A stretch of 64,000 nucleotides of DNA from Bryobacteraceae bacterium (GTDB lineage: Bacteria > Acidobacteriota > Terriglobia > Bryobacterales > Bryobacteraceae), in the NCBI GenBank assembly GCA_035501355.1, contig DATJWJ010000263.1, forward strand, positions 24,172-88,171. The letters run 5' to 3'. Below are positions 9,195 through 54,506 of this stretch, piece by piece. Every line of letters starts with the position of its first letter. Position 1 is the first letter of the stretch. Under the pieces are notes generated by a model that was given only the letters and a program-made list of their open reading frames with translations, did no database searches and was not told the DNA's origin. The position numbers and the translations under genes are program-made.

Positions 9195-9206
9195 CAATCG
9201 ACGCCC

Positions 9207-16561: not shown

Positions 16562-16662
16562 CGTGTTTGCCTGGGGCGCATGCAAAATCCCTTTCTGGTT
16601 TCGTTTTCCGTCGTCTCAAAGCTTGCCCTTTGTGACGCAATAGAGAGAAAGCACGGCGGGGG

Positions 16663-17239: not shown

Positions 17240-17526
17240 GCTCTTAGCCTCCTTTTCATCGTAGCTTTTTAGCACGGCTCGGCGGCGTCACGCTGGGAAG
17301 GAAAGGGCGTGAATCCCGAAAGTTAATCCTCTGCGAGAACTGCGCGACGATTACTTTTCGGTTTTTGCGTTAAAGGTGGTCGTCGCTGCTTTGCCGCCCT
17401 CTTTATGAGACGGCGTTGATGTCCACGTAATCGGATAGCGCCTTGTCAACCGAACTACCGGCCGCGTCGGCACAGAATTTCAAACTGACTACCTGCTAAT
17501 TCGAGTACACAAAAGCAGCGAATGTT

Positions 17527-17901: not shown

Positions 17902-18162
17902 GCCGGATTAGTGTCCCGCAGCGGTTTTCCTCGCACGAAAATTCGTCGGTTCACCGTCGCCCCGCCTGTAACCCTCCCTCGGGCCTGCTTTTCGGACGCC
18001 CATCTTTGCCAGAAACCTGCGGTCGCCTCGGGGTTTTCCCTTAGCGTCTCAGTGTTTCCGGCGGTCGATGGACAGAAGGGGAGGGATCGACAGAAGATTT
18101 CAATGGAGCCCATGAGCGCGGTACCTTCTCGCTCAACATCAACCAAACTTCAGGAGTCCAAA

Positions 18163-29125: not shown

Positions 29126-29176
29126 AAGCGCTCATTGTACCGAGCGACGATGTGCTTGTAGGTGGAATTGATACGT

Positions 29177-29395
29177 CTAGGCGGCTGAGTCGATTTCCAC
29201 CACACCTGCGAAACTCGCAGGCTGGGGTATCGCGAGCCCTTCTTCGCGCATACCCTCGAGATGAAACTGGATGGCTTGCAGGATCAGGCGCTCCACTTCT
29301 TCTCGGGAGTCTCCGACGCTTATCACACCAGGAAGGTCGGGGACGTATGCCCCCCACGACGTCGGGCCTTTCTCATAAATGACCGTGTACGTCAT
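29177..29395 (-). CDS. hicB: HicB-family antitoxin
   Basis: 72 aa with YTVIYEKGPTSWGAYVPDLPGVISVGDSREEVERLILQAIQFHLEGMREEG. Confidence 0.85.
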   Translation of the reverse strand: MTYTVIYEKGPTSWGAYVPDLPGVISVGDSREEVERLILQAIQFHLEGMREEGLAIPQPASFAGVVEIDSAA

Positions 29396-29604
29396 CGATC
29401 CTCACCTGGTAACGCTAGTCCGGTGCTTCGAAGGATAGCTTTTAGTGTCCCCAACGGAACGTCCTTACCCAGTTTACCTGATACAGTCACCACCATCCCT
29501 TTGTCAGGATGGCGGAATTGACGATGGCCGCCCTTGGTTCTCCTCAGCCGCCAGCCGTTCGATTCCAAGAGCCTGATCAGGTCTCGGACCTTCACGCTTT
29601 TCAT
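29392..29604 (-). CDS. hicA: HicA-family mRNA interferase toxin
   Basis: Start set at ATG 29604 (MKSVKVRDLIRLLESNGWRLRRTKGGHRQFRHP...VSGKLGKDVPLGTLKAILRSTGL). The stop overlaps the hicB start (ATGA). Confidence 0.85.
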   Translation of the reverse strand: MKSVKVRDLIRLLESNGWRLRRTKGGHRQFRHPDKGMVVTVSGKLGKDVPLGTLKAILRSTGLALPGEDR

Positions 29605-29761
29605 AGTAAACCGGCGAGAGGCTCGACCCGAGCGGCGCGCACGGCAGTACGGTAAACTGGTGATGCGTTGTCTCGCCTCTGCGTCGATCGCCGCACGACG
29701 CTTTCTCCGCTGCATGCGATCGGAACCCGTACGCTATTTGTCGCCGCCCGCGGCTGTCTCG

Positions 29762-30478
29762 ATGGACGACCGCTGGTACGAGATTGCCAATCTCGATCAT
29801 CCCTGGATCACGCGCCGCTTCGAGGTGCTGCGCCACCTGGCCGGCGACCTGATCGCGCAGTCCACCGCCATCGCCGAAATCGGATGCGGGCATGGTCTGC
29901 TGCAGCGTCAACTCGAGGATGCCTACGACGCCGAAGTCGCCGGATTCGACCTGAATGAAACCGCTCTGAAGCAGACCGTTTGCCGCTTCAGTCCGGTCTG
30001 CTGCTACGACGTGCTCGAGCAGAGCCCGGAGTATGAGGCGCGCTTCGATCTGATCCTGCTGGCTGACGTTCTGGAACACATCGCGGACGAGGACGCATTC
30101 CTCGAAGCGGTAAAGTTTCACCTGGCTCCCGGAGGCAGCGTGCTGGTAAACGTGCCGGCGCTGCAGTCTTTATACTCGGGTTACGATCGCGCGGTTGGAC
30201 ACTTGCGCCGCTACCGGATTGGCTCGCTCGCGGCGCTGGCGCAGCGCCATGAATTGACACTGGCGCGATACACCTACTGGGGGCTGCCGTTGCTGCCGCT
30301 GCTGGTCTTGCGAAAACTGTGGATGCTCCGTCGACCGGGCGCGGGCGCTATTGCCGCGGGTTTCGAGACGGGTGGGCGCATCCGCGATCTGGCGCTGCTG
30401 TGGCTGTCGCGATGCGAGCCGATCCCGCAACGGTTCATCGGCACGTCGCTGATGGCCGTCTTGCATAGCCCGGGTTGA
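29762..30478 (+). CDS. Class I SAM-dependent methyltransferase (first gene of glycan operon)
   Basis: Motif I IAEIGCGHGLLQRQL, GFDLN, and LILLADVLEHI. Start chosen at ATG 29762 (MDDRWYEI); ATG 29664 is also possible. Confidence 0.75.
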   Translation: MDDRWYEIANLDHPWITRRFEVLRHLAGDLIAQSTAIAEIGCGHGLLQRQLEDAYDAEVAGFDLNETALKQTVCRFSPVCCYDVLEQSPEYEARFDLILLADVLEHIADEDAFLEAVKFHLAPGGSVLVNVPALQSLYSGYDRAVGHLRRYRIGSLAALAQRHELTLARYTYWGLPLLPLLVLRKLWMLRRPGAGAIAAGFETGGRIRDLALLWLSRCEPIPQRFIGTSLMAVLHSPG

Positions 30479-30479
30479 A

Positions 30480-31811
30480 ATGGGCCGCCTCAACAATCCT
30501 CAAATCGTTCTTGCGGCCGAGCCGCCTGTGCGCGTCGCGCCAATCGTGGCTCTCCAGGCGCCCGATGCCGGTCTCGGACAACGCGCCGGATTCGCGTTGC
30601 TATGCATTTTCACCATCTCCGGCTACGCAAACGAATTCGCCACGCGATTGTTTCACGTGAAGGCCTACATCTCCACCGTCTCCTGGGTCCTTCTGCCCGT
30701 GTTGCTGATCCTGAGCGGCAATGTGTTCCGCGCGTTTCGCGATCCGATCGGCCGGCTATGGGCGCTCTTCCTGGCCTGGATTTTGCTGGCCACGCCGTTC
30801 AGCGTGTGGCGGGGCGGATCGGTGACGCTGTTGCTCGATTACATCCCGCACGGCTGGATCCAACTGCATTACTTCGCTGCTTTCGCGATAACGGTGCGTC
30901 ATCTGCGGCGCCTGATGTTTTTCCTGATCGCTTCCGACGTTTTGCTTTTGATCGACTGCTTGTGGGGCGGCTCAATGCAGACTGGCCGTTTGGAAATTCC
31001 AGATAGCATGTTCTTCCGCAACGCCAACGACCTGAGCCTGCAGTTGCTCATCGCCGTGACCCAGTTTGTATATCTGCTGTACCAACCGGGACTGTGGAAG
31101 CGCGTGGCCGGTGGCGCTGGGATGGCCGCGGCGATGGTGTTCATGCTGGAAACCGGCGCGCGTGGCGCGTTCCTGGCGGCGCTGGTCCTGGGAGTGGCGG
31201 GCCTGGCGCTAACGCGGCATCGAATTCGAACCATTCTGTGGGCAGCGCCGGTCGCCGCGGCGGCTATGTTGATCGCACCCTCCGGCGTTTTCCATCGCGT
31301 CACGCTGATCGGGTCGCAATCCGATGCCGTCGCTTCGGATGCGCTGGATCAGGCTGCGCTGGGATCGCAAACCCAGCGGATCGCTCTGCTGCGTCAAAGT
31401 GCGAAATACGCGTTGCTGCATCCCTTGCTGGGCGTGGGGCCGGGGCAGTTTGCCGTAGCGGCGTCGAAAGAACTCACGCGGGAAGGGAAGCAGGCGCCCT
31501 GGCTTGGCACGCACAATTCCTATACCGAGATCGCCAGCGAGTGCGGCCTTCCCGCATTGCTGCTGTATTCGGCCGTGATCTTTCTGGTGCTGCGTTCGAA
31601 CCTGCGCATCTACCGGCAGGCAGATGGCCGCCGTGCGGCCGGTGGCGACGCGGGCGTGAGCGCTCTAGCGTTCTGCCTGTTTGCGAGCGCCTTGGCTTAT
31701 GCCGTGGACACGCTGTTTTTCCATGTCGCCTACAGCAGCTATCTTCCGGCCATCGCCGGCATGAGCATCGCCTTGCGGCTGGCGCTGGAGCGGAGGAACG
31801 AGACGGCATGA
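30480..31811 (+). CDS. O-antigen ligase / Wzy_C-family polytopic membrane protein
   Basis: 443 aa, multi-TM, with the Wzy_C loop LETGARGAFLAAL...HPLLGVGPGQF...GTHNSYTEIASECGLPALLLY. It starts 1 nt after the upstream stop. Confidence 0.8.
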   Translation: MGRLNNPQIVLAAEPPVRVAPIVALQAPDAGLGQRAGFALLCIFTISGYANEFATRLFHVKAYISTVSWVLLPVLLILSGNVFRAFRDPIGRLWALFLAWILLATPFSVWRGGSVTLLLDYIPHGWIQLHYFAAFAITVRHLRRLMFFLIASDVLLLIDCLWGGSMQTGRLEIPDSMFFRNANDLSLQLLIAVTQFVYLLYQPGLWKRVAGGAGMAAAMVFMLETGARGAFLAALVLGVAGLALTRHRIRTILWAAPVAAAAMLIAPSGVFHRVTLIGSQSDAVASDALDQAALGSQTQRIALLRQSAKYALLHPLLGVGPGQFAVAASKELTREGKQAPWLGTHNSYTEIASECGLPALLLYSAVIFLVLRSNLRIYRQADGRRAAGGDAGVSALAFCLFASALAYAVDTLFFHVAYSSYLPAIAGMSIALRLALERRNETA

Positions 31812-33208
31812 AACACGCGCTGGCGCTGGGAGCGATTCTGGCCGTGTTCGCGTTCTTTGCGCGCAGAGAAGTCTTCTCCTGGCCTTATTACTACGACGAA
31901 GCCGACTACATGTTCGCAGCCTCGCTGGGCTGGTCGAACTATACCGATCAACCTTCACAATCGCTTGCGGATTACATCCGGACCGGCCTGAGAGACGGTC
32001 GAGATCACGCGCGGCGCCCCATGCTCTCGGCCAACAGCCGCGCGGGCTCCGACGTAAACTTCTACCGGCACTGGCACGGCCCGCTGTATTTCTACTGGCT
32101 GGCGGCACTCGCTCCGCTGCATCTCAACGAACAAGCGACGCGCGGCTTCTCTTACGTTTTTCCGGTGCTCACCGCGCTGGTCATTTATTTCGGAAGCCTC
32201 TGGCTTTTTCCACGGGGCGGCTTGGCCGCGGTGCTCAGTTCAGCCTTTTATCTCTGGAGCTATGCGACTGTGTTTAGCAATGAGATCGCACCGCATCAGC
32301 TTTTCGTGCTGTTCACCGTGACCGCATTGCTGTTGCTGATGAAGTGGCGCGCAACAGGCGATCAGCGCTTCTGGTACGGCTCCGTGATCGCGGCGGCTTG
32401 CGCATTCTGCACGCTGGAAGTGGCCTTCGTGCTCCTGGCGGTGATGATCGCGTGCGGGCCTGGTCAGACTCGCAAATCGATATTTCTGTTCCTCGCGACC
32501 GTTCTGTTTCTCTGGCCCGCCGCCGTGCTCAAGCTCAGCTTTGCGAAGGCCTATCTGTTCATGGCGTATCTGGCTCTGATGCGCAAATCGGCCTGGGGCG
32601 ACGCCGGATTTGTGGAGACCTGGCAACACCGCTTCGTCGAATCGCCCGGGGAGTGGATCTTGTTCGGTGTCGCGGCCATTCTCTGTTTCCGATTCTGCGA
32701 TTCGGCCACGCGAAAGATGTTGATGCCGGTAGTGCTGTATGGCGTCTTGATGTTGCTTGTTCTCCTGCGGGTGAACACCGAAACGCCGCGCTATATGCTT
32801 CCGTTCTTGCCGGCGTTTCAAATCGCCGCCGGCTTCGTGTTGGCCGCTGTGTTGAAGAACTGGAAAGCCGCTCCGCTCCGATTCGCCGCGACCGCCGCAA
32901 TTCTTCTTTTGCTGTTCTGGAATACGTACACGCAGCTTCGGGCGCATCCCATCCTGCCGGCGCCCCGGCTTGCCGAAGTTCTGGCTCGAGTGCATCCTCT
33001 CGAAGGGCAGAGGTTGCTGGCGCCGCAAAACGATCTCCCGATGATTCATTACTATCTGCCGGGCGTAATGGTCAGCGGGTATGCCGACCAGCGCGAGCGG
33101 TCCGTGATGCTGGCGCAGGACAACTTCGACGCGGTTTTATATCCCGGCTACCCAATCAGTCTCCAGAGACAATCTTCGGCCTCTCGGCACTATCTTTCTC
33201 AACGATGA
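31808..33208 (+). CDS. GT-C-fold glycosyltransferase-like membrane protein (ArnT/PMT-like)
   Basis: Start at ATG 31808 (ATGA overlap). TM1 MKHALALGAILAVFAFFA is followed by the acidic loop WPYYYDEADYMF, about 11 TM helices and a C-terminal soluble tail. The longer ORF from 31094 is an out-of-frame overlap artefact. Confidence 0.65.
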   Translation: MKHALALGAILAVFAFFARREVFSWPYYYDEADYMFAASLGWSNYTDQPSQSLADYIRTGLRDGRDHARRPMLSANSRAGSDVNFYRHWHGPLYFYWLAALAPLHLNEQATRGFSYVFPVLTALVIYFGSLWLFPRGGLAAVLSSAFYLWSYATVFSNEIAPHQLFVLFTVTALLLLMKWRATGDQRFWYGSVIAAACAFCTLEVAFVLLAVMIACGPGQTRKSIFLFLATVLFLWPAAVLKLSFAKAYLFMAYLALMRKSAWGDAGFVETWQHRFVESPGEWILFGVAAILCFRFCDSATRKMLMPVVLYGVLMLLVLLRVNTETPRYMLPFLPAFQIAAGFVLAAVLKNWKAAPLRFAATAAILLLLFWNTYTQLRAHPILPAPRLAEVLARVHPLEGQRLLAPQNDLPMIHYYLPGVMVSGYADQRERSVMLAQDNFDAVLYPGYPISLQRQSSASRHYLSQR

Positions 33209-34791
33209 GAGAAAGCCCAGCGGGCACCGACCACGGGACGCCAGAGCGCAGCCGGCGCTTCGTTAATAACGTGCTGTGGAACTGGCTCGGGACGGCCGTC
33301 AGCCTGTTTATTGGGTTCGTCTTATCGCCATACCTGATTCTCAAGCTGGGCGCGGACGGCTACGGCGTGTGGGCCATCACGTTTTCGTTGGTCGAGTATT
33401 ACTGGTTCTTCGACCTGGGCTTCCGATCCGCGACCGTCAAGTTCGTCGCGCACTATTCCGCCATCGACGACGGCCAGAACGTCCGCGCGGTAATCAGTAC
33501 GGCATTAGTTTATTCGACTCTCGCGGGCGCGGTGGTCCTGGGCGTAGTGTTCGCGCTGGTGAGCTACGTCCAGCGATTTTTCCAAATCCCGGCGAACCTG
33601 CGCGGCAGTTTCCAAACGCTAATAATTCTGATCACGTTGAACTGGTGCCTCGGGCTGGTATTCAACGTGTTCAACGCCAGTCTCGAGGCCGTGCAGCGCT
33701 TTGAATACTCGACTAAAGCATCCATTGTGTCTGCCGCGGTGCGCGCCATCGGTTGGGCACTGGCGCTGTATCTGGGCTACAAGCTGGTCGCGATCGGCGT
33801 AATCGCAATCGTGAGCCAGGTGGCCGGCTACGCGGTGAACTGTTTCTATTTCCGACGGGTGTTTCCAAGCCCCCGGGTTTCGATTCGTCACGCGAGCTTC
33901 GGAACGTTGCGAGAGATGGCGCGATTCGGAATCCATACCTTCGTGATGACCATTTCGAACCAGCTGCTCAATCAAGGCGCGCCGCTGCTGATCGGACATT
34001 TCCGGCCCGCGGCTTTCGTCGGCTTTTACAACTTACCGGTGCGGCTGCTCCAGTACACCGTGGAGTTGGTGGGGCGAATCGGCATTGTGACTAACACCAA
34101 TGCAGCCGAGCTGGCCGCGCGTGAAGGCTCGGAAGGCCTGAGCGGCCTGGCGGTTTATACCAATCGCTATTGCCTGGTGATCTTCATGCCGCTTGCGATC
34201 CTGCTATGGACGCACGGGCCGCAATTACTCACCTTTTGGGTTGGCGCGCAGTTTGCAAGCTACAGCGCGAAGGTCCTGCCGATTCTGGTGGCCGGGTACG
34301 TCGTCGGCGTGGTGGGACAATTCAGCGCCGGGATGCTTTTGCAAGGCCTGGGAAAGCATCAACGCTATGCTCGAACTCTGCTGGTGGAAGCGCTGGCCGC
34401 GCTGCTTCTGCTGCTGATCGCGATTCCGCGTTGGGGCATTGTCGGAGCGGCTTGGGTTTCGGCGTCGCTCATGATTCTGAACCGCGGACTGATTGCCTCA
34501 CTGCTAGTCAGCAAGACCATCGGCCTGCCATTTGCGCAATACCTGCGCGGCGTATACGCGCCGCCGGCGCTGGCGATGCTGCCGGTGCTGGCGCTTTCCT
34601 TCTGGCTGCGGTCAACCATTCTGCCCGGGAACAACTGGATGCAGATTCTTGCGGTGGCGGCCATCGTCGGGCCCGCCTACTATTCATTGGCGTTTTTCGT
34701 GGCTCTGGAACGCGGGCATCGAAGTTTGCTCGCTAGCTGGATCGGGAGCCGATGGCATCCGGTTCTGGCCGATGGAGTGGCGCATGGTTAG
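33205..34791 (+). CDS. Wzx-like polysaccharide/oligosaccharide flippase (MOP superfamily)
   Basis: Start at ATG 33205 (ATGA overlap). Sequence is NNVLWNWLGTAVSLFIGFVLSPYLILKLGADGYGVWAITFSLVEYY, with about 12-14 TM. Confidence 0.8.
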   Translation: MRESPAGTDHGTPERSRRFVNNVLWNWLGTAVSLFIGFVLSPYLILKLGADGYGVWAITFSLVEYYWFFDLGFRSATVKFVAHYSAIDDGQNVRAVISTALVYSTLAGAVVLGVVFALVSYVQRFFQIPANLRGSFQTLIILITLNWCLGLVFNVFNASLEAVQRFEYSTKASIVSAAVRAIGWALALYLGYKLVAIGVIAIVSQVAGYAVNCFYFRRVFPSPRVSIRHASFGTLREMARFGIHTFVMTISNQLLNQGAPLLIGHFRPAAFVGFYNLPVRLLQYTVELVGRIGIVTNTNAAELAAREGSEGLSGLAVYTNRYCLVIFMPLAILLWTHGPQLLTFWVGAQFASYSAKVLPILVAGYVVGVVGQFSAGMLLQGLGKHQRYARTLLVEALAALLLLLIAIPRWGIVGAAWVSASLMILNRGLIASLLVSKTIGLPFAQYLRGVYAPPALAMLPVLALSFWLRSTILPGNNWMQILAVAAIVGPAYYSLAFFVALERGHRSLLASWIGSRWHPVLADGVAHG

Positions 34792-35824
34792 CGAATTTCC
34801 GCGTCTGTGTGTTATCGTCCCTTGTTACAACGAAGAGGAGATGCTCGGAGAGTTCTTCGCCGCCGTGACGCCGGTTCTAGAAGACGCGACCGATGGAGAA
34901 TGGGCCATCCTGTGCGTCGACGACGGCAGCGGCGACCGCACCTCCGCCGTGATCGAGCAATGGCACCGGCGCGACGGGCGCATCTCGGGTGTTCGGCTCA
35001 GCCGCAACTTCGGCCATCAAGCGGCGCTTTCGACCGGCCTGGCTTACGCGCGCGGCGAGTACGTCGGCATCATGGATTGCGACTTGCAGGATCCGGCCGA
35101 GGTTCTGGTGGAGCTGTACCGCGCCTGTTTGCGCGATGAACTGGATGTCAGCTACGGCGTGCGGGGTCGACGCGATGCACCCTGGCTGCTGCGTGCGGGC
35201 TACTCGGCGTTCTATCGCATTATCCAGCGCGCCGCCGATCACGAATGGCCGCGCGATGCGGGCGACTTCTGCGTCATGAGCGCGCGCTGCCAACAAGCGC
35301 TGCTGGCGCTGCCTGAACAATCGCGCATGTTGCGAGGCTTGCGCTCCTGGGTGGGTTTCCGGCAAGCCGGGATCGTGTACGATCGTCCGGCGCGCCTGCG
35401 CGGATCGACCAAATATAATTTGCGAAAACTCACCGCGTTGGCACTGGAAGGCCTGATCTCCTTCAGCAGCATTCCACTGCGTCTGGCGAGCCTGATGGGA
35501 ATCGCGATGGGGCTGTTCTCGGTTGTATTCGGAGTGCTGGTGCTGGTGAACCGGCTGTTCCCGCGCTTCACCGTGCTCGGATATTGGGTGGGCGCGAATC
35601 CAGGCACCGCGACGCTGCTGGTGTTTCTGGCGTTCACTTTGAGCGTGCTGTTCGTTTGTCTGGGGATCATCGGTGAGTACCTGGTTCTTTTGCTGCACGA
35701 GATCAAGCGCAGGCCGGCCGCCATCGTTCAGTCCGTGATCGGCGACGCGCGGCCTTATGACGCTGCGTACGCGGTGCTGGACTCGAGCGCTCATCCGTCG
35801 CTCTGGACCGTAACCGCGCGCTAG
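34784..35824 (+). CDS. GT2 polyprenyl-phosphate glycosyltransferase (GtrB/ArnC/Ppm1-like)
   Basis: CVIVPCYNEEEML, CVDDGSGDRT, RNFGHQAALSTGL and DCDLQDP, plus two C-terminal TM helices. Start is ATG 34784 or 34772. Confidence 0.85.
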   Translation: MVSEFPRLCVIVPCYNEEEMLGEFFAAVTPVLEDATDGEWAILCVDDGSGDRTSAVIEQWHRRDGRISGVRLSRNFGHQAALSTGLAYARGEYVGIMDCDLQDPAEVLVELYRACLRDELDVSYGVRGRRDAPWLLRAGYSAFYRIIQRAADHEWPRDAGDFCVMSARCQQALLALPEQSRMLRGLRSWVGFRQAGIVYDRPARLRGSTKYNLRKLTALALEGLISFSSIPLRLASLMGIAMGLFSVVFGVLVLVNRLFPRFTVLGYWVGANPGTATLLVFLAFTLSVLFVCLGIIGEYLVLLLHEIKRRPAAIVQSVIGDARPYDAAYAVLDSSAHPSLWTVTAR

Positions 35825-37389
35825 CGGCGCCGGTAGAGTTTCCACCAATCCGATTCGGCGCACAAAGTGAACTTACTCTGGATGGCCGGCAGATAATTGC
35901 GGAATAGTGCCGCAGCGTCGGGCTCCGAGGATGCGGGATGCTTCGGCACCATCACAATGTCGGCGGATCCGAACAACCATTTGGGCGAAGGCTTGTGCTG
36001 GTCGTTGAAAGTGTGATTGAAGGCCAGCGCCGGTGTGCCTCCCTCGGGCGGGCGGCGCAGCAGGGCGTAGGGAAACGGGTTCACCATGTCGAGAGTAAAG
36101 ACCGTTTGGTCTGGTTTGGAAACGCGCTGGATCAGATCCACACCGTCGTTGACGTAATCGACGTAGGCGCGGCCGTTGCTGCGTTGGTCGGCGTCGGTTC
36201 CGTCGGGTGTGTCGTAGAGAATCAGGTTCCTTAGAGGCGTGGCGTGAAATCGCGCGACCGGAGGGTTTCTGTGGGAGTCGACCAAGGCGTACGCGAGGCC
36301 GCTGGCGTCCCCGATGGCGATCGGTGCGTAGCAGATCAGGCCTAGCAGGATGAGAACGGTTTCTGGTTTGGGAAAACGCGGCGCGTTCCATGAAACGCGT
36401 GCGATTGCGGCGCGGCCTTGTTCGACTAGCAGCAGCGCCAATAGCGCATTCAGCGGATAGCCACTCGGTTGGGCATTGGTGGCCAGCAGAAGAGCGCCGC
36501 CGATCCACACCAGCGCTGTCACTAGCAGCGGCCGCAGTCTTAAGGTGAGGCTCGAGGCCAACACGGCCAGCAGGGCCAGCGGAAGAAAATCGCCCAGGCC
36601 CTTGAAGAGCGACCAGCGAACGTTCCATAGCGACAGGCTCGAACTCCGTGCAGCACTCATCAAACGCAAATCGCTCCCAAAGGCAGCAAAATCGAACCGC
36701 AAATACGCCATCATCGCCAGGCCGGCTGCCGACAGGCCGATCGCAATTCCGAGGATGCGGCGCAACCCGCGTTGTTCGATCACCACCGAACAAGCTGCGA
36801 ATCCCAACGCAACCAGGCAATAGCTGGGCTTGAGGAACAACAACGCGACGGAGACAACACCAGTCGAGACTCCGCCTATCAGAGTGCTCTGACCCGGCTG
36901 AAAGCATTCCAAGACGACGAGGCCTAGCAGCGCGTAGCCATAGCGGTTGTAAAGCATGGCGTGGCTCAACACATTTGGTGGCCAGCCGATGGGGAACGGC
37001 GCCGTCGCGATGAGGGCCACGACGATTCCGGCCAGCGTCGCCGGAATCGCCGCCATACGCCGCCGGCTGATGGCGTAAGCCCAGCAACCTGCGATTCCGC
37101 CGACCAGCGCGCTCATGTAGCCGATTCCGTTCGGAGAATTGTGAGCGAGCTTCAACCCAGCCGCTGACAGCAGCGACAAGAGCGGACCCATGCTGGGATT
37201 GAAATTGATCTCCGGACGTTGGCCGTTTAAAACGCGCCAGCCTGCGTCGAGAAAAATGAAGATATCGTGCCCGAAGATGCGCGTGTGGACCGCGCCGATG
37301 GCCGCGGTTACAGCACTAATTAGAAGAATCAGCAGCACCGCGCAGAGATCGGCGAGCCTAGTGGAGGGTTTCGACCAGATCGCGGTCAC
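35821..37389 (-). CDS. Polytopic membrane protein with C-terminal soluble domain (GT-C/DUF2029-like, putative)
   Basis: 522 aa with a GTG start, about 10 TM helices, an early loop FGHDIFIFLDAGWRVLNGQRP and a roughly 170-aa hydrophilic C-terminus. It is the third gene of the minus-strand operon. Confidence 0.5.
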   Translation of the reverse strand: MTAIWSKPSTRLADLCAVLLILLISAVTAAIGAVHTRIFGHDIFIFLDAGWRVLNGQRPEINFNPSMGPLLSLLSAAGLKLAHNSPNGIGYMSALVGGIAGCWAYAISRRRMAAIPATLAGIVVALIATAPFPIGWPPNVLSHAMLYNRYGYALLGLVVLECFQPGQSTLIGGVSTGVVSVALLFLKPSYCLVALGFAACSVVIEQRGLRRILGIAIGLSAAGLAMMAYLRFDFAAFGSDLRLMSAARSSSLSLWNVRWSLFKGLGDFLPLALLAVLASSLTLRLRPLLVTALVWIGGALLLATNAQPSGYPLNALLALLLVEQGRAAIARVSWNAPRFPKPETVLILLGLICYAPIAIGDASGLAYALVDSHRNPPVARFHATPLRNLILYDTPDGTDADQRSNGRAYVDYVNDGVDLIQRVSKPDQTVFTLDMVNPFPYALLRRPPEGGTPALAFNHTFNDQHKPSPKWLFGSADIVMVPKHPASSEPDAAALFRNYLPAIQSKFTLCAESDWWKLYRRR

Positions 37390-37422
37390 TCGGTCCAGCC
37401 AGCGCGCGATCGTAAGCCGCTC

Positions 37423-40400
37423 CTACTTTTCGACCGCCACCATGACGGGCGACGTGGTGATCTGGCCGCCGTTGTTGCGCTGGATGATGTAATAGGCGAC
37501 GCGTCCGGGAATGAGATTCATTCGAATCCGGCAACCGGCGCTGCAATCGGCGTATTTCACCGGTTCGCTGGCCCATCCAAACGGGCCCGCGACCGCGCCG
37601 CCCGGAGAACCGCTGCCGAAAAAGATTCCACTGAGCACCGCGTTGACGCCGGAAACATCGGTGATCTTCAGCGTGACATGCCCGCTGAGATTCCAGACCA
37701 AATAGATGCCGCCGGAAAAATTCGTGATGGATCGCGTATCCAGCACAGCGCCGGTCGCGCCGTCCAAAATCTGCGCGGTCTCCGATCGATTTCCTGAATC
37801 CCAATCCACAAAGTAGAACGCGACCTTGTGTGTGGCGCCATCGGTGAAATTGAGGTCTACCGTAAACGAAGTGGAACTATAGACGCTGGCCGCGACTCTT
37901 CCGGGACTGCTGACTCTTTGCAAGCCTCGAACGTCGGAGGTTTGCGTGGCCCAAGTGTACGGCGCTCCGCCGACGGCCACGGTCACGTAGCTGGGGTACA
38001 GGGTGGAATCCTGAATGACATTATATCCGTCGGAGCCGTACAAGGTTTCCCAATTACCTTGTGTCGCGGTGTCGATGTTGACGTAGCCGGCGCTGTTGCC
38101 GGGGTTTTGAGGCGGTGTGGTAGCCGTGAGGGGAACAGCGCCGATCGAGCAGCCTTGCTCCTGGCGCGGTGTCGGGTACAGGCTCGCCGGCGATCCATCC
38201 ACCGGGCCGTTTTCGGCGTAGCCCCAGCAAATTCGCACCTGATCGCCGGGCGAGCCGGACAGCGTGACGTCGTGCGCCGCATAGCCGGTTCTCACTTGCG
38301 AATCTTGCGCCGGAAACGGCGGCATCGAGACTGCGCACACTTCCGAGCGCACGCCGTTCAGCCACCAGCAGGGCACGAACATCCAGGCACCGTCGGGAGT
38401 CATCTTGGGCGCGGAGAATTGATATTGCCCGCCGATCCCGGTGAAGGCGGTGGACAGCATCCGCTGGCGCAGTCCGCCGCGGTCGAACTTTCCAGAAACA
38501 TCGATCTGTTGAATCTTGCCCGCGACCGGCGAGGCGTTGAAGAAGCAAGGCGCCACTTCTTCGTACTGATTGGTCAAACACTGGTTCTCGCCCGCGGCAA
38601 AGGGAACGCTGACATAACGGTCGCCGGCGCTGGAATCCGTCCGGCATTCACCCGCTTGAATCGCGAAGCATGCGGCGAAAGTGGTGGCATCGGTGATGGT
38701 GTTGGTGGCGGTGTTGGGACTGCTGACATCTTTCAGCAGAAACCGCCCGGCGAAAAGCACGAACGGCAGCTGCTTGGGATCGGGAGGGCCGCCCGAATAC
38801 GGATCCGTGATCTTGTAGACCTGGGCTGTGCCCGCGACAGCGGTCAAGACGCCAGCCACGCCCGGACTCGACCGGTATTCCGGCCCATTGCCCGACGGCG
38901 GATTCAGATGCCGGTAATTCACCACCCAGCGCCGATCCCAGGGCGACGCGGCGAGTTGGTCATTGTTCATGTATTGCTGGATCAAGCCCGCGTAGCCCGC
39001 GCCCGACGCAGCCCAAGCGGGACCGACCGCCGCAATATCCGGCAGCGGCTGCATGATCTGCTGCGCAATGGGCAGGTCATAGAAGCCCGCGTACTTGGTT
39101 TGATCTTGCAGATCCACCGCGACCGCGATCTTGTTGTTCGGATTCGATCCGGGAACTTGAACGCCGTGCACCAGCACCAGCGCGGGGTTGTCCGGGAGCC
39201 ACGTTGCCGACGGGTCGGTCGCGTTCATCATCCAGTTCGCCGCGGCGAGAATCCAGTTGGCGGTCATGGCGAGCGACAGGCCGTCCGAATGCACCGCGTT
39301 GATGGTGGCGTAAGCGGGTTGCGCGTTGTTGGGCCACACACCGCCGCCGCGCACCAGCCAGAGATTGATCTGCGACGCCGAGATCACATCTTTCTTGGCG
39401 ATGATGAACACTTCGTCGTAGTCGTTATAGTTTTCGTTCGGCCGCACCCAGTCGCCCACGGCCAGGTTTTGCAATTTCGACCAGGCGGCGTTTGTCACCG
39501 TGGTTCCGTCAGTGCTGGTGCAGGGAAATTGTTGAGCTTCGGTCTTGCCGCCGGGATAAATAGCTTGCGTGCCGGGCGTGTGGCTGCAGGGTTCCGACGA
39601 CACCTGAACCTGAATGCAGTGATTGCCGGCCGCGCCCAGGTTGACCAAGTACGCGGCAAGGCCGGTGGGGCACGCATAGGCTTCGTTGGCGGCCATGGAA
39701 GTGCCTGCGCCTGTGCCCGTGAAGGTCCAACTCGCGGTTTGTCCGAAGCCGGCGCGATTCACCGCCGTCACCGCCATTTCAAAAGGACCGTACAGAGCGT
39801 TGCTCGCGCTGGCGGCGTTGGGATACGGATGATCGAGCGTGAGGGCATGATACGTGCCGATGCCGTGAATGGGACCGTGCACGTAGCCCCAGCGGCCGGG
39901 ATATTTGGAGAAGCTGTCGAAGACCTGAACCAAGTTTCCGCTAGTCGCGTCGAAGGCGCCGCAGACTCTTAGGTTCCGATCGCCGCCGCCCGTTGCGCCC
40001 AGGCAGCTCAACGCGTATCCGCTGGTCACCGTGACCTCGCCGACCGCAAAGCCGGACAGATCGAAGCCCGGGTTGTAGCTTGCATACGCGCTGACAATCT
40101 GTGAGCGCAGGTCCATGGGCGGGTTCCCGGACGGATTGGTGAGATTCGTGTAAGTGAAGCAGGTCGCGACAGGGTAGGAATAGGCGGCGACATATTGCTG
40201 AGCGCCGGACCAGTTCGTATACGCGGGACTGCATCCGGGCTGAGTGGGATCGTATTGCGCCGAGACCAGCAGCGCGGTTGTGCCGGAATTGTAAGCAGCG
40301 CTCGCCATGAACTTGCTGCCGTCGGTGGGATGCCATCCAGCGAAGGCAATGTTCGCCCCGTTTGGAAAACTAGCGCCGTTGGATGTCCAGGACTGGTTGG

Positions 40401-41976
40401 TAGGAACGCCGGATGGTCCCAGCGGCCGCGATTCGCCCAGCGGCGCGCCGTTCTGATCCTTCGAGATGAAAAGCCAGTAAGCCGTGCCCGCCCACTCGTG
40501 CGAGAAAGTGCACAGGTAACCTTGGAGCGTGTAGCCAGAGTAGGGATTTCCGGCGGCGTCGTTGGTCACTGCCACTGGGTTTGAATTGCAATGCTGCGGC
40601 GTCGCGTCTTCAAGTACCGACCAGGAGCTGGACATGTCGGCTTCAAATCCAAAGCTGACGTTGATGGATCCGATGGCGCCCTGGCGCACAATCTGAAATC
40701 CAAACGCGCGGCCTTCGTAATTTGCCGATGCCGGGCAGGCCGAGTTGCACGTTTCGACCGTGGTCAATTGCACCGCGGATTGGATGGACGCGATGGTGCA
40801 GTAGTTGTTCGCGCAACCCCACGCCGAGGAGCCTTGAATATAAATCTTGCTGCCGGCTGGCCAGTCCACGTCGAACGCGTTCTCAGACGTATAGGCCTGG
40901 CCGGGATTGGTCAGCGAGACAGTGTTGCCGTTGACGCTCACGGTTCCAGGCGTCGGAACCACATCGCCGTGCAGCGGCGTGTAGCCCCAGTTCGCAAACA
41001 CCGGCGCGGGCGCCGCGGCCGGAATCTTCACCGTGCCGGTGGCGGCGGGCGTGCTTTGCAACGTGATATTGAACGTGCGCGACAAGCACGGCAGGCCGGC
41101 TCCTTGCGCGAGACAAACCGCCAGCGTGTTGCTTCCATCGGCGGCGCCGATCGCGGTGGAGTCCGCCGAGCCATACATGTACAGAAGGAGATCGTCGACG
41201 TTGAAGCGCGGGTACCAGTTGTTGAAAACGCCAGTCCCGGTCATCTGAAACGCTGGAAGCGGCATGAAGATCTGGGCCGCGCCGGTGCAATTGGCGTAAC
41301 TTGCGCCAGCCGTGTTCAGATTCGCGGCGCTGGAACACACGCCGCTCGAGATCACGCCGGTCGCCAATGGCGCGCCCAGGCCGTCGGTGCTATTTTGACT
41401 CGCCGCATACGCGTCTCCGGCGAACGTCACTCGCTTTACTAACTGCCCGCTGAGCGGATCCGCCAGCGCCTGATTCCGCTGGCTTATGGTCCAATCGAAC
41501 TGCGGATACGCGCGGTTGTCCCAGCCGTTGGGATCGAAGGGCGGTTGCTCAGGATACAAACTGCCAAGCCGCAGCGTGGATGTGGTGAACGATCCTTGCG
41601 AAGTCTGTGAGTCCACCAGATCCGTGATCGAGTAGTAATAAACCGTCTGCGCGGCCAGCGCCCGCGAGTGCAGTTTTCCGTCGCTGGCTTTTTGCGACGT
41701 CCGCAAACCGGCCACGAAGCTGACCGTTTTCCCCAGGATCGCCGACCCCGCGCGATTGCATCGCTGGGAAGCGGGGAACAGCGTGGCGTTGGTGTCGTCG
41801 ACCAGGTGCGTCTGCGCCGCATCGCTATAGACCTGGACCGTACACTGCGATGGATCGCTGACCGTGAAGGACAGCACCGCCTGGGTGTTGGTGGTTTGGA
41901 TTCCAACTTTACCGGGCGCGCCAAAGGAGGGAACGCAGCACAAAACGGCTGCCAGACCATACAAGAGTCGCTGCAT
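37423..41976 (-). CDS. Giant secreted protein of unknown function (1517 aa)
   Basis: Uninterrupted ORF with signal peptide MQRLLYGLAAVLCCVPSFGAPG. Composition is rich in Gly/Ser/Thr/Asn/Trp/Tyr/Cys. I recognised no catalytic, repeat or anchoring motif. Confidence 0.75.
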   Translation of the reverse strand: MQRLLYGLAAVLCCVPSFGAPGKVGIQTTNTQAVLSFTVSDPSQCTVQVYSDAAQTHLVDDTNATLFPASQRCNRAGSAILGKTVSFVAGLRTSQKASDGKLHSRALAAQTVYYYSITDLVDSQTSQGSFTTSTLRLGSLYPEQPPFDPNGWDNRAYPQFDWTISQRNQALADPLSGQLVKRVTFAGDAYAASQNSTDGLGAPLATGVISSGVCSSAANLNTAGASYANCTGAAQIFMPLPAFQMTGTGVFNNWYPRFNVDDLLLYMYGSADSTAIGAADGSNTLAVCLAQGAGLPCLSRTFNITLQSTPAATGTVKIPAAAPAPVFANWGYTPLHGDVVPTPGTVSVNGNTVSLTNPGQAYTSENAFDVDWPAGSKIYIQGSSAWGCANNYCTIASIQSAVQLTTVETCNSACPASANYEGRAFGFQIVRQGAIGSINVSFGFEADMSSSWSVLEDATPQHCNSNPVAVTNDAAGNPYSGYTLQGYLCTFSHEWAGTAYWLFISKDQNGAPLGESRPLGPSGVPTNQSWTSNGASFPNGANIAFAGWHPTDGSKFMASAAYNSGTTALLVSAQYDPTQPGCSPAYTNWSGAQQYVAAYSYPVATCFTYTNLTNPSGNPPMDLRSQIVSAYASYNPGFDLSGFAVGEVTVTSGYALSCLGATGGGDRNLRVCGAFDATSGNLVQVFDSFSKYPGRWGYVHGPIHGIGTYHALTLDHPYPNAASASNALYGPFEMAVTAVNRAGFGQTASWTFTGTGAGTSMAANEAYACPTGLAAYLVNLGAAGNHCIQVQVSSEPCSHTPGTQAIYPGGKTEAQQFPCTSTDGTTVTNAAWSKLQNLAVGDWVRPNENYNDYDEVFIIAKKDVISASQINLWLVRGGGVWPNNAQPAYATINAVHSDGLSLAMTANWILAAANWMMNATDPSATWLPDNPALVLVHGVQVPGSNPNNKIAVAVDLQDQTKYAGFYDLPIAQQIMQPLPDIAAVGPAWAASGAGYAGLIQQYMNNDQLAASPWDRRWVVNYRHLNPPSGNGPEYRSSPGVAGVLTAVAGTAQVYKITDPYSGGPPDPKQLPFVLFAGRFLLKDVSSPNTATNTITDATTFAACFAIQAGECRTDSSAGDRYVSVPFAAGENQCLTNQYEEVAPCFFNASPVAGKIQQIDVSGKFDRGGLRQRMLSTAFTGIGGQYQFSAPKMTPDGAWMFVPCWWLNGVRSEVCAVSMPPFPAQDSQVRTGYAAHDVTLSGSPGDQVRICWGYAENGPVDGSPASLYPTPRQEQGCSIGAVPLTATTPPQNPGNSAGYVNIDTATQGNWETLYGSDGYNVIQDSTLYPSYVTVAVGGAPYTWATQTSDVRGLQRVSSPGRVAASVYSSTSFTVDLNFTDGATHKVAFYFVDWDSGNRSETAQILDGATGAVLDTRSITNFSGGIYLVWNLSGHVTLKITDVSGVNAVLSGIFFGSGSPGGAVAGPFGWASEPVKYADCSAGCRIRMNLIPGRVAYYIIQRNNGGQITTSPVMVAVEK

Positions 41977-41985
41977 CGTTGATCC

Positions 41986-42822
41986 CTACCAAGTTGTTAG
42001 TGCGGCGCGGAGCCAAGTATTCGCAGCTACGCAGACGTAATAGTAGGAGGTGTCGACCGACCAGGCGCCCTTGGTGCAGGCGGTCGAGGAAGTGGGCGGG
42101 ACGGGCATCCACAACGCTAGTAAGGTGGGGTCAATCGAGAGGGTGGTTACGCCGTTGGCGGTGGCGCTGAGCAAGCCGGTTCCGGCCGCGATGTTGGTGG
42201 TGCTCTGGAATGCACGCCAGTCCTTGCCGCCGGTGGTATCCCAAGTGCCGTTGGTTGCGGTCCAGGTGAAAATTGGAATGGAATTGGAGGGAAATGCGCT
42301 CACGCCCGGCGCTGCCAGACAGCCCGAAGCGCAGGTTACCGTCAGGTTGTGGCCAACGGTGAGGTTTCCACTCGGATCCAGATAAACGTAGGCCGTGCCG
42401 GTGCCCGCGCTGATGGTAGCCGAGGTCGAAGTGGTGAAGGCGTACACCGAGCTTCCGAACCGCACATTGCAGGGCGCGGTAACCGAGCAGCTCGCGCCGA
42501 GGGTCAGCGTGGTCGCCGAGGTTAGCGTCGGCGCCAGGTCTGAAAGCTGGCTGGCGGACTGCGCACCGGTTCCTGCTTCGAGCGTCCAGGTGTTGGTTGC
42601 CGTGCAGCCATAGACGTTGGTGCCGGCGGCCGCGCTGGTCAGGTAGAACATTTGTCCCACCGAGCAACTGCTGGGCAGCGCCGCGCCGGACTTGAAGGGC
42701 GCGGTGCTCATCGCGCCGGTGAAATCCACGTCTCTGCTCTGCGCCTTCAGGTCAATCGCCGTAGGCGTCTGGCACCAGGCCTGGCACACGAAAAAGATAA
42801 CAATCAGGTATCGCTGCAACAC
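41986..42822 (-). CDS. Secreted Cys-motif protein of unknown function (278 aa)
   Basis: GTG start at 42822 preceded by GAAGGAGGG. Signal peptide LQRYLIVIFFVCQAWC. Rich in Thr/Ser/Ala/Gly. Ends 9 nt before the giant gene. Confidence 0.65.
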   Translation of the reverse strand: MLQRYLIVIFFVCQAWCQTPTAIDLKAQSRDVDFTGAMSTAPFKSGAALPSSCSVGQMFYLTSAAAGTNVYGCTATNTWTLEAGTGAQSASQLSDLAPTLTSATTLTLGASCSVTAPCNVRFGSSVYAFTTSTSATISAGTGTAYVYLDPSGNLTVGHNLTVTCASGCLAAPGVSAFPSNSIPIFTWTATNGTWDTTGGKDWRAFQSTTNIAAGTGLLSATANGVTTLSIDPTLLALWMPVPPTSSTACTKGAWSVDTSYYYVCVAANTWLRAALTTW

Positions 42823-42946
42823 TGACGCGAGCCCTCCTTCATGCGGCGAGTATAGAGTGCGGCGGCGGGGTGCCGATGCTAAGTGCTTGATTTAACTGAT
42901 CGACAGATCTGTCACCGTTTCCGCCGGCAGGGTCTAAAAATAGCGC

Positions 42947-42982
42947 TTGACAACGTGGTCGTTTAGTACTAATTAATTAGTA
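42947..42982 (+). promoter_or_regulatory. Putative blaI promoter and operator
   Basis: TTGACA (42947-42952), a 17-nt spacer, then TAATTA (42970-42975). A perfect 16-bp palindrome TACTAATTAATTAGTA (42967-42982) ends on the A of the ATG. Confidence 0.5.
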
Positions 42983-43380
42983 TGCGACCGCGGCACAGCA
43001 CTCTCACCGGGCAGGAGCTGGAAATCATGAAGGTGGTCTGGCAGCTCGAATCGGCCACCGTGCGGCACGTCTACGAGGAGCTGCTCAAGAAACGGCACAT
43101 CGCCTACACCACCGTCATGACGCTGATGAACATCCTAGAGAAAAAAGGCCACCTCAAAAAGCGGCAGCAGGATCGGGCTTACGTGTATTCTCCGGCCAAG
43201 CCTCAGAAGCAGGTGATCGGGGCGATCGTGCGCGATTTTGTGCAACGCGTTTTCAACGGATCGGCCGAGCCGCTGTTGCTGCACCTGATCGAAGACGAAC
43301 AGCTCACGGCGAAAGATCTGGACGAAATTCGGCGGGCCATCCGCTCCTCGAAGCCTCCTCAAAGCGGGAGGGCAAAATGA
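42982..43380 (+). CDS. BlaI/MecI/CopY-family transcriptional repressor
   Basis: 132 aa with a winged helix LTGQELEIMKVVWQLESATVRHVYEELLKKRHIAYTTVMTLMNILEKKGHL and a C-terminal dimerisation helix. Confidence 0.9.
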   Translation: MRPRHSTLTGQELEIMKVVWQLESATVRHVYEELLKKRHIAYTTVMTLMNILEKKGHLKKRQQDRAYVYSPAKPQKQVIGAIVRDFVQRVFNGSAEPLLLHLIEDEQLTAKDLDEIRRAIRSSKPPQSGRAK

Positions 43381-45203: not shown

Positions 45204-45225
45204 CGGCTGTAGTAAGCTGGGCGTC

Positions 45226-54490: not shown

Positions 54491-54506
54491 CCGCCGAGCC
54501 CCCTCC

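Follow-up and report, generated by a model that had tools for sequence, protein, structure and literature searches.

A cluster of eight tightly packed genes in a member of the Bryobacteraceae (phylum Acidobacteriota; assembly GCA_035501355.1, contig DATJWJ010000263.1, positions 24,172 to 88,171 of the forward strand) couples a set of lipid-linked glycosylation enzymes to two secreted proteins, one of which is a giant of 1517 amino acids (aa). The cluster lies at 29762-42822 of the 64,000-nucleotide (nt) stretch analyzed here (the window, to which coordinates in the genome refer) and, as read from the open reading frame (ORF) map and the junction sequences, forms two convergent operons. Its enzymes belong to recognizable families or folds, and its three parts are genetically coupled: a trio for monosaccharide transfer (a GtrB-like GT2 glycosyltransferase, a methyltransferase, and a 522-aa GT-C glycosyltransferase predicted here), an oligosaccharide branch, and a pair of secreted proteins (278 aa and the giant). 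By analogy with known systems, the secreted pair is tentatively proposed to be the dedicated acceptor (probability roughly 0.4), in which case the cluster would yield a glycosylated protein structure at the surface or in the periplasm.

Organization of the cluster

The genes of the two operons, and a domain inserted in the giant protein, are as follows.

29762-30478, plus strand: S-adenosylmethionine (SAM) methyltransferase, class I, 238 aa; first gene of the plus-strand operon
30480-31811, plus strand: Wzy_C-family membrane protein, 443 aa (O-antigen ligase, polymerase or O-oligosaccharyltransferase family)
31808-33208, plus strand: predicted divergent PMT_2-type GT-C, 466 aa, locus tag VMH05_26190
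33205-34791, plus strand: Wzx/MOP-type flippase, 528 aa (Pfam Polysacc_synt)
34772-35824 (alternative start 34784), plus strand: predicted GtrB/ArnC-type polyprenyl-phosphate GT2, 350 aa
35821-37389, minus strand: second predicted GT-C, 522 aa, VMH05_26205; closes the operon of the giant
37423-41976, minus strand: giant secreted protein, 1517 aa, VMH05_26210 (identical)
37615-38085, minus strand: accessory domain inserted in the giant, residues 1298-1454
41986-42822, minus strand: secreted Cys-motif protein, 278 aa; opens the minus-strand operon

The methyltransferase stop and the Wzy_C start are separated by 1 nt (position 30479), ATGA overlaps at 31808-31811 and 33205-33208 join the next genes of the plus-strand operon, and the Wzx stop overlaps the GT2 start by 20 nt (ATG at 34772) or 8 nt (ATG at 34784). 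On the minus strand, 9 nt lie between the 278-aa gene and the giant gene and 33 nt between the giant gene and the 522-aa gene. The GT2 gene (plus strand) ends at 35824 and the 522-aa gene (minus strand) at 35821, so that the stop codons of both fall inside one CTAG (35821-35824). The gene coordinates, the 1-, 9- and 33-nt gaps, the ATGA overlaps and the common CTAG had been reported in a preliminary description of this DNA, and the ORF map agrees with all of them. In public records the eight genes are called "hypothetical protein" wherever a name is recorded.

The complete eight-gene arrangement is also found in six close species (loci L005, L015, L020, L021, L023, and L024), where the giant is 72-94% identical. 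These species keep the same chromosomal neighbors as well (genes for a short-chain dehydrogenase/reductase [SDR], a periplasmic binding protein, and a metallo-beta-lactamase-fold [MBL] protein), which at this level of identity suggests that the cluster was inherited vertically and kept by purifying selection.

A scan of the other large ORFs of the window revealed neither an initiating phosphoglycosyltransferase nor Wza, Wzz, or an ABC exporter for glycans, as the preliminary description had also stated. It had called the module self-contained as well, which is doubtful because neither an initiating transferase nor sugar-nucleotide genes are present.

Glycosylation enzymes of the plus strand

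The methyltransferase matches the Pfam families Methyltransf_23/12/11/25 (4e-13 to 7e-11) and has a full-length homologue in L005 (92% identity over 238 aa). The Wzy_C protein contains multiple hydrophobic segments and matches Pfam Wzy_C (PF04932) at residues 215-363 (6.8e-19; 68.6 bits against a cut-off of 31.7); its best NCBIfam match is PEP_O_lig_1, at 34.8 bits against a cut-off of 188, and a search of PDB sequences gave only spurious matches to complement C4. The flippase, with approximately 12-14 hydrophobic segments, matches Polysacc_synt (PF01943; 1.9e-22) and Polysacc_synt_3 (PF13440; 2.7e-13).

The GT2 matches Pfam Glycos_transf_2 at residues 13-166 (9.7e-30) and aligns over its full length with the structure of GtrB (5EKP; residues 11-323 on 27-330, 5.3e-58) and, over residues 10-324, with those of ArnC (9HWJ/9BHC; 2e-31). 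Two C-terminal transmembrane segments are found at residues 234-264 and 276-311. Because of the full-length GtrB/ArnC alignment and these two segments, the enzyme is predicted to be a polyprenyl-phosphate sugar synthase. Its best NCBIfam match is PgfS (NF047588; 1.6e-55, 188.5 bits against an equivalog cut-off of 500), making it a relative of PgfS rather than an equivalog, and its match to the NCBIfam ArnC model (3e-34) is likewise below the equivalog cut-off.

The 466-aa protein has no Pfam match of its own, even at E<=10, and its family profile finds no PDB sequence. It has 405 homologues, and 18 of the 22 that were aligned (43-85% identity) match PMT_2 (PF13231), the best at 6.8e-9. Approximately seven hydrophobic segments are present, and D30, E31, and D33, which lie in the loop after the first transmembrane segment (WPYYYDEADY), are invariant in the 22 sequences. 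The protein is thus predicted to be a divergent PMT_2-type GT-C, and the earlier assignment as a GT-C with an acidic DE loop is upheld. The methyltransferase, Wzy_C, Wzx, and GtrB-like GT2 assignments are likewise borne out by the Pfam and structure-sequence matches, as is the view of the plus-strand operon as a periplasmic-face, lipid-linked glycosylation set composed of these five proteins.

A second GT-C in the operon of the giant

The last gene of the minus-strand operon had been described as encoding a polytopic membrane protein with a soluble C-terminal domain. Both features stand; what had been missed is that the protein is predicted, from its modeled fold, to be a GT-C glycosyltransferase of a family that has no Pfam model. 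An AlphaFold2 model built on a 36-sequence alignment (predicted local distance difference test [pLDDT] 94.5, predicted template modeling score [pTM] 0.94) shows a polytopic core and a periplasmic C-terminal domain. In a Foldseek search with this model, the top 13 PDB matches are all GT-C enzymes (probability 0.96-1.00), among them AftA (8IF8; E 2e-5, TM-score 0.50), ArnT (5F15/5EZM), AglB, STT3, AftB, PglB, and AftD; the TM-scores to AftA and ArnT are 0.45-0.50. GT-C enzymes carry a catalytic acidic residue in the loop after the first transmembrane segment. In the 36 sequences of the 522-aa family, G40, H41, D42, W51, G56, and Q57, which follow this segment, are invariant.

With 1389 cluster representatives at 50% identity (E<=1e-3), the family is a large one. 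The 522-aa protein has no Pfam match, nor do 23 of 24 members of its family; the remaining member has a lone PMT_2 match (E 0.017). The family profile finds no relevant PDB sequence. An hhalign comparison with the family of the PMT_2-like GT-C was not significant (probability 1.4%), and the GT-C assignment of the 522-aa protein therefore rests on the fold. If the assignment is correct, the giant's own operon ends in a glycosyltransferase gene.

Another family of polytopic proteins without a Pfam match (F625; 620-640 aa) is encoded between the Wzy_C gene and the giant gene in L003 (7962-9839) and L027 (7964-9838) and is also present in L006, L008, and L034. Its loop motif, DPAHWLNE...GEIPYCDFSFQYPPL, aligns with the first-loop motif of the 522-aa GT-C (hhalign, 39 residues, E 4e-4, probability 34%), and the family may represent yet another GT-C.

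The secreted pair

The giant begins with a signal-peptide-like N-terminus, which is followed by 30 Cys residues. The preliminary description of the protein as Ser/Thr/Asn-rich holds to a moderate degree (S 8.8%, T 8.1%, N 5.9%), and there is no poly-Ser/Thr tract. By sequence, nothing was found in Pfam (E<=10), NCBIfam, PHROGs, the PDB (with the single sequence and with a 15-sequence profile), or, by tblastn, GenBank phages. An AlphaFold2 model of residues 24-1223 (pLDDT 65.6, pTM 0.63) is all-beta, with a confident N-terminal beta-sandwich and moderate confidence overall. Foldseek searches of this model against the PDB and BFVD gave no TM-score above approximately 0.15 for long alignments. 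The low-scoring matches (botulinum toxin binding domains, propellers, and phage tail proteins) were too weak for a fold to be assigned. Family, profile, and fold searches thus place the giant in no family and no known fold. A classical surface-layer (S-layer) protein was considered and is unlikely because of the 30 Cys residues; S-layer proteins are typically Cys-poor.

There are 47 homologues of the giant, all from Acidobacteriota metagenome-assembled genomes or from metagenome or read assemblies. They have in common a core of approximately 1285 residues and a conserved C-terminal tail of 50 residues. Residues 1298-1454 are missing from homologues of approximately 1335 aa, in which position ~1285 joins position ~1465. 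This inserted domain is 47% identical to a segment of protein P0044 that lies beside a Big_7 domain, and it has no PDB sequence match. Paralogous copies of the giant occur in tandem or nearby in L010, L029, L044, L046, and L047, a pattern that suggests cassette-like duplication; in L044, L046, and L047, one or more 278-like genes lie near them.

The 278-aa protein, described earlier as a secreted Cys-motif protein, does have a signal-peptide-like N-terminus followed by 8 Cys residues and contains the motif C-x(2-4)-G-x(8-24)-Y-x-C-x(3-6)-W twice (residues 53-79 and 249-270). What that description missed is a C-terminal module in common with phage tailspikes. Residues 199-278 match positions 713-792 (of 792) of PHROG 17312, annotated "tail protein" (6.6e-8), the match being limited to the last ~80 residues of the 278-aa protein, and the same part matches the extreme C-termini of tail fibre or tailspike genes in 59 phage records. 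The protein ends in ...YYYVCVAANTWLRAALTTW and the tailspike of a Klebsiella Ackermannviridae phage in ...YIYVCVANNSWLRAALTTF; the last 40 residues are nearly alike, including a near-identical final "WLRAALTT[FW]". No Pfam, NCBIfam, or PDB sequence match was found for the 278-aa protein. Its signal-peptide-like N-terminus and 8 Cys residues argue against a role in the virion.

On two predicted viral contigs in IMG/VR, a 278-like gene precedes a giant-like one (L057, 8025-9884 and 9881-13987; L058, 6896-8773 and 9848-14029), and a third (L059) carries a giant-like fragment only. Another relative of the giant, P0045, is encoded on the same contig as genes for DNA_pol_A, UDG, and ERCC4. The L057 pair and P0045 have signal-peptide-like N-termini and approximately 30 Cys residues, and they are therefore unlikely to be virion parts. 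When seven neighboring genes of L056, L057, and L058 were compared with GenBank phages by tblastn, nothing informative was found and the viral nature of the contigs was not confirmed. L057 and L058 may be true phages that carry "moron" genes for secreted proteins, or prophages whose limits were miscalled.

Linkage of the pair to glycosylation genes in other Acidobacteriota

Neighborhoods were compared within a radius of 10 kb around the giant gene at 49 loci (45 from GTDB species representatives and four from metagenomes). A 278-like gene is present at 34 of the 49 and is the next called gene 5' of the giant, on the same strand and nearly always within ~100 nt, at 30 loci. A Wzy_C homologue (28-60% identity) is found at 31 of 49 loci, Wzx at 22, GT4 glycosyltransferases at 16, the 522-aa GT-C at 14, and the PMT_2-like GT-C at 9. 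Further neighbors include asparagine synthase (7 loci), DUF218, NTP_transferase, two more PMT_2 families, and a GtrII-like protein.

The linkage extends to distant homologues. The 28 loci at which the giant is less than 55% identical include 15 with a 278-like gene, 15 with Wzy_C, 11 with some GT-C, 10 with GT4, 7 with Wzx, and 1 with a GtrB-like GT2, and the GT-Cs at the 11 loci are non-orthologous (the two additional PMT_2 families and the GtrII-like one). The Wzy_C gene is directly adjacent to the giant in L001-L004, and its linkage to the giant is still seen at 27-43% identity. Its placement varies by lineage: the gene may stand immediately upstream of the giant, overlap it convergently, or be one gene away. 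Such variation argues that the linkage is selected rather than a relic of inherited synteny. Gene neighborhoods thus point to a conserved core composed of the 278-aa protein, the giant, and Wzy_C, to which GT-C enzymes appear to have been recruited repeatedly.

Loci L004 and L047 have a compact set consisting of the giant, Wzy_C, a PMT_2 GT-C, and a long 278-like protein (in L047, beside an incomplete copy of the giant). No cytoplasmic glycan-synthesis gene is called inside these two sets, which by analogy resemble dedicated protein-glycosylation arrangements.

Linkage of the homologues of the giant and the 278-aa protein to GT-C and GtrB-like genes had been named beforehand as a point on which the proposal could fail. 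The proposal largely survives this check. GT-C and Wzy_C genes are indeed linked to these homologues, and the GtrB-like gene is so in close Bryobacteraceae relatives only, apart from the single case among the distant loci.

A gene for a 977-aa Ser/Thr kinase with tetratricopeptide repeats (TPR) lies upstream of the giant in the distant loci L001, L004, L036, and L010, and in L001, L004, and L036 it is accompanied by a gene for a 159-aa secreted protein (region 6286-9715 in L001 and 5745-9174 in L004). The window has a kinase-TPR gene at 9192-11360, approximately 30 kb from the cluster.

A recurrent GT2, methyltransferase, and GT-C module

Distant members of the 522-aa family (37-42% identity) in L052, L053, and L054 are followed in one operon by genes for a membrane GT2 and a Methyltransf_23/11/25 protein; L054 additionally has sugar-activation genes and a GtrB-type GT2 that bears a GT2_TM_C domain. 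The GT2 and methyltransferase genes of these loci are not orthologous to those of the window, so the same three-part logic recurs with different parts. L052 contains a second, fragmented, collinear copy in the order methyltransferase-GT2-GT-C that is closer to the window's versions. At 59 distant metagenome loci of the 522-aa family, many of which are short, a GT2 gene is present in 33, a methyltransferase gene in 31, and both in 26. The 22 of these loci that extend 3 kb or more to either side include 14 with a GT2, 11 with a methyltransferase, and 11 with both. All these counts are lower bounds since the tblastn panel was small.

The convergent overlap seen in the window is conserved. The 522-aa gene and a GT2-type gene overlap at their 3' ends by 4-15 nt in 11 of the 12 loci having both, the window included. 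In five of these loci, the partner is not the GtrB-like gene but a larger one that fuses a methyltransferase and a GT2. Such fusions are found in L007 (16274-19024, minus strand), L008, L013, L017, and L018, with a similar one in L055 (11451-12971); the longer ones, such as that of L007, have a polytopic N-terminal domain ahead of the methyltransferase and GT2 domains. The fusion gene is convergent to a gene for a 522-aa-type GT-C in L007, L008, L017, and L018, and no such GT-C is called in L013. The giant of the fusion-bearing Bryobacteraceae is approximately 70% identical. The fusions provide Rosetta-stone support for joint action of the methyltransferase and the GT2.

These patterns suggest that GT2, methyltransferase, and 522-aa-type GT-C form a recurrent module that is split across both strands in the window. 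The usual partners of the minus-strand GT-C, the GT2 and the methyltransferase, sit on the plus strand, which accounts for the interlocking of the operons. Two independent lines of evidence thereby sustain the earlier proposal that the two operons are functionally tied: the prediction that the minus-strand 522-aa protein is a GT-C, whose family recurs with GT2 and methyltransferase, and the linkage of the giant and 278-aa homologues to Wzy_C, Wzx, and various GT-Cs in distant Acidobacteriota. The giant is present at all five metagenome loci that are more than 45% identical to the 522-aa GT-C and have at least 3 kb on both sides. Judged by the neighborhoods compared, the trio of GtrB-like GT2, methyltransferase, and 522-aa GT-C appears to be a Bryobacteraceae addition to the core of secreted pair and Wzy_C.

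Proposed mechanism and alternative explanations

The three parts would act together at the outer face of the inner membrane. The GtrB-like GT2 would load a sugar onto polyprenyl phosphate in the cytoplasm, and the methyltransferase probably methylates the lipid-linked sugar, by analogy with ArnD, NaxD, and LgmC. After flipping of the lipid-linked sugar, the 522-aa GT-C would transfer it to the acceptor. In the oligosaccharide branch, Wzx would flip a polyprenyl-diphosphate-linked unit and the Wzy_C protein would ligate or polymerize that unit, while the PMT_2-type GT-C would add a further lipid-linked sugar. This scheme is a proposal as regards the sugar, the role of the methyltransferase, the step assigned to each transferase, and, above all, the acceptor.

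Genes for PilO/TfpO (Wzy_C family) and TfpW adjoin pilA, and cnm adjoins pgfS. Glycosylation of the secreted pair is favored because in such known cases the position of a Wzy_C or GT-C gene beside the gene for a secreted protein marks the substrate, because the minimal loci consist of transferases and secreted proteins only, and because the signal-peptide-like N-termini and even Cys numbers put both proteins in the right compartment. In its most specific form, the proposal is that the 278-aa protein and the giant make up an unrecognized disulfide-rich surface structure of Acidobacteriota, glycosylated by a dedicated Wzy_C O-oligosaccharyltransferase and lineage-specific GT-Cs, one of which, from the new family, delivers a methylated sugar together with the GT2 and the methyltransferase. 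This detailed version is unlikely to hold in all its parts.

Several observations weigh against the pair as acceptor. The giant is predicted from its model to be folded, all-beta, and Cys-rich, unlike the disordered Ser/Thr targets of the streptococcal GtrB and GT-C systems; the maximum S+T content in any 30-residue window of the protein is 40%, this maximum lies inside predicted strands, and there is no Ser/Thr-rich disordered tract. The sequons N-x-S/T, D/E-x-N-x-S/T, and D-S/T-A/I/L/V/M/T occur in the giant at the level of shuffled sequences. The Wzy_C domain is common to ligases, polymerases, and protein O-oligosaccharyltransferases, which cannot be told apart from the sequence. The giant is found at none of the 59 distant loci of the 522-aa family despite their GT2 and methyltransferase partners, so the module would have some other acceptor there. 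Additionally, many of the loci that contain the pair resemble ordinary, variable gene clusters for polysaccharides (GT4 at 16 loci, asparagine synthase at 7, NTP_transferase, and Wzx), and the long 278-like proteins of L004 and L047 end in GDSL/SGNH hydrolase domains. Together with the tailspike C-terminal module of the 278-aa protein, these hydrolase forms would fit a protein that binds or processes a glycan rather than a substrate.

The tailspike module, the hydrolase forms, the variable clusters, the lack of disordered Ser/Thr tracts in the giant, the pairs on the IMG/VR contigs, and the contig of P0045 favor an explanation in which the enzymes make or modify a polysaccharide of the cell surface, either O-antigen-like or an exopolysaccharide. 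The pair would not be the acceptor but would bind, anchor, trim, or de-esterify that glycan; the inserted domain of the giant could bind carbohydrate. Parallels are phage receptor-binding proteins and the holdfast anchor proteins that are encoded near holdfast polysaccharide genes. Against this, no glycoside hydrolase, lyase, beta-helix, or lectin fold is recognized in the giant, and no Wza or Wzc export genes are seen in the window. The minimal loci, with Wzy_C and/or a GT-C and the pair, lack cytoplasmic glycan-synthesis genes, which would be odd for a dedicated polymer, and a GT-C gene directly follows the giant in the same operon, a position that in known cases marks a protein substrate. 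A glycan-handling role of the pair is the main alternative, with a chance that falls well short of even.

The tailspike module and the pairs on predicted viral contigs could also be explained if the cluster were a domesticated or decaying prophage fragment in which receptor-binding-like genes stand beside lysogenic-conversion genes for a Gtr-type GT2, a GT-C, a flippase, and a Wzy, with serotype conversion and superinfection exclusion as their function. Phages P22, SfV, and epsilon15 carry Gtr clusters or O-antigen polymerase genes beside tailspike genes. This origin was rejected as the main explanation and is judged very improbable: the window contains no integrase, tRNA, terminase, capsid, or other recognizable phage gene and no base-composition anomaly, no phage gene is among the recurrent neighbor families of the 49 loci, the eight-gene cluster keeps its chromosomal neighbors across species, and signal-peptide-like N-termini with many Cys residues are incompatible with cytoplasmic virion assembly. 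Even less credit is given to mere adjacency of a lipopolysaccharide or exopolysaccharide modification operon (plus strand) and an unrelated adhesin-like operon (minus strand). The linkage of the GtrB-like GT2, the methyltransferase, and the 522-aa GT-C to the giant in close relatives only would be expected in that case, as would the lack of one or another component at many giant loci. However, the 522-aa GT-C is encoded in the giant's operon with its family's usual partners on the other strand, the Wzy_C linkage persists at high divergence in differing arrangements, and the convergent overlap is conserved.

Comparison with known glycosylation systems

The enzymes of the cluster all fall into known superfamilies, and their general logic has precedents. 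In the Pgf system of S. mutans, the GT-A enzyme PgfS and the GT-C enzymes PgfM1 and PgfM2 modify the adhesins Cnm and WapA, and GtrB and PgtC2 glucosylate proteins in S. pyogenes and S. pneumoniae (PMC12041528; PMC5856776). In these systems, a GT-A synthase of polyprenyl-phosphate sugars serves one or two GT-C enzymes that glycosylate extracytoplasmic proteins; the window resembles them in encoding a predicted synthase of this kind and two GT-Cs. PgfS is the best NCBIfam match of the window's GT2, and a transferase gene of the window is in the same operon as that of a large secreted protein. The differences are that the window comes from a diderm acidobacterium, lacks a PgfE-type epimerase, scores 188 against a cut-off of 500 for PgfS, adds Wzx, Wzy_C, and a methyltransferase, and has a candidate acceptor without a Ser/Thr-rich disordered region.

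The Gtr systems of Shigella and Salmonella phages (GtrA, GtrB, and GtrC) likewise combine a GtrB-type GT2 with a polytopic serotype-type transferase that acts at the periplasmic face. The window differs in having a 528-aa Wzx instead of a GtrA-like small flippase, two GT-Cs, Wzy_C, and a methyltransferase, and no prophage context; the cluster is gap-free, with no small ORF for a protein of four transmembrane segments (GtrA type).

ArnC/ArnD/ArnT, FlmF2/NaxD/FlmK of Francisella, and LgmA/LgmC/LgmB of Bordetella each use a GT2, a tailoring enzyme, and a GT-C in three steps. The trio of the window would follow the same three-step logic, and ArnC and ArnT are sequence or fold matches of its enzymes. 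However, its tailoring enzyme is a SAM methyltransferase instead of a deformylase or deacetylase, its GT-C family lacks a Pfam model, and nothing points to lipid A as its acceptor.

The pilin systems based on PilO/TfpO and TfpW resemble the proposed system of the window in that a Wzy_C-family or GT-C enzyme modifies a dedicated secreted protein. In the window the neighbors are a 1517-aa all-beta protein and its 278-aa partner rather than a pilin, and both types of enzyme are present together. TfpW of P. aeruginosa modifies pilin (bioRxiv 10.1101/2020.04.19.049825), and the Wzy_C-family and GT-C pilin enzymes draw on general lipid-linked sugar pools (bioRxiv 10.1101/2020.04.19.049825; 10.1101/150227).

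A further likeness is to a group of clusters in which a variable set of glycan-synthesis genes, with one for a Wzy_C-domain enzyme, adjoins the gene for a large surface protein. These are the slg clusters for S-layer glycosylation in the monoderms Geobacillus and Paenibacillus, which have the Wzy_C-domain transferase WsaB and use an ABC-transporter route. The window differs in that it is from a diderm, has Wzx instead of an ABC transporter, and encodes a giant with 30 Cys residues in contrast to the Cys-poor S-layer proteins.

Flanking and other genes of the window

Two further features near the cluster are as follows.

42849-42876, minus strand: weak sigma-70-like hexamer pair (9/12 matches), 5' of the 278-aa gene
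48553-50205, plus strand: polytopic 550-aa protein (sub-threshold PMT_2), a possible peripheral member and perhaps a third GT-C

The hexamer pair is the sole promoter-like match in 29000-43200 and is not significant alone; in the promoter and terminator scan, matches were rarer than in shuffled sequences. The 550-aa protein has seven hydrophobic segments and a PMT_2 match of E 0.002 (18.7 bits against a cut-off of 26.1). The gene for its homologue is divergent from and adjoins the 278-aa gene in L006-L009, L013, L014, L017, and L018. In the window, approximately 5.7 kb lie between the two, including genes for BlaI, a BlaR1-TonB_C protein, and an MBL-fold protein (42982-46215).

The genes that flank the cluster are unrelated to it (SDR, periplasmic binding protein, gamma-glutamyltranspeptidase, BlaI, and BlaR1-TonB_C protein). 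Elsewhere in the window are genes for RpoC, MacB/FtsX permeases, a Ser/Thr kinase, leucine-pathway-type enzymes, and the like. The three large MacB_PCD/FtsX permease genes (6471-8999, minus strand; 11408-14302, plus strand; 52025-54517, minus strand) and a gene for a SASA-family carbohydrate acetylesterase (14312-15994, minus strand) have no evident link to the cluster. The region 16000-19300 has a lower G+C content (0.565 compared with approximately 0.61) and contains small ORFs only, including a likely toxin-antitoxin-like pair (16663-17275, minus strand) and a gene for a small secreted protein (17527-17901, minus strand).

Significance

Three elements of the locus are new: the 522-aa GT-C family with its trio, the giant and 278-aa protein family, to which no fold could be assigned, and the conserved coupling of this pair to Wzy_C and GT-C genes. 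A literature search found no description of any of them. Acidobacteriota are among the most abundant soil bacteria, and to our knowledge their cell surfaces are almost uncharacterized. The locus is a testable candidate for a dedicated surface-glycoconjugate system built around a conserved protein of approximately 1500 residues. The large 522-aa GT-C family, with its GT2 and methyltransferase partners, would be a new "make, methylate, flip, transfer" variant of the ArnC/ArnT logic, and the assignments could improve the annotation of many genomes. The link between a secreted host protein and the C-terminal module of tailspikes is relevant to the recognition of surface glycans by Acidobacteria and their phages. 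If the detailed proposal were true, unlikely as that is, the cluster would add a dedicated glycoprotein system of a new type, from a major soil phylum that has barely been studied.

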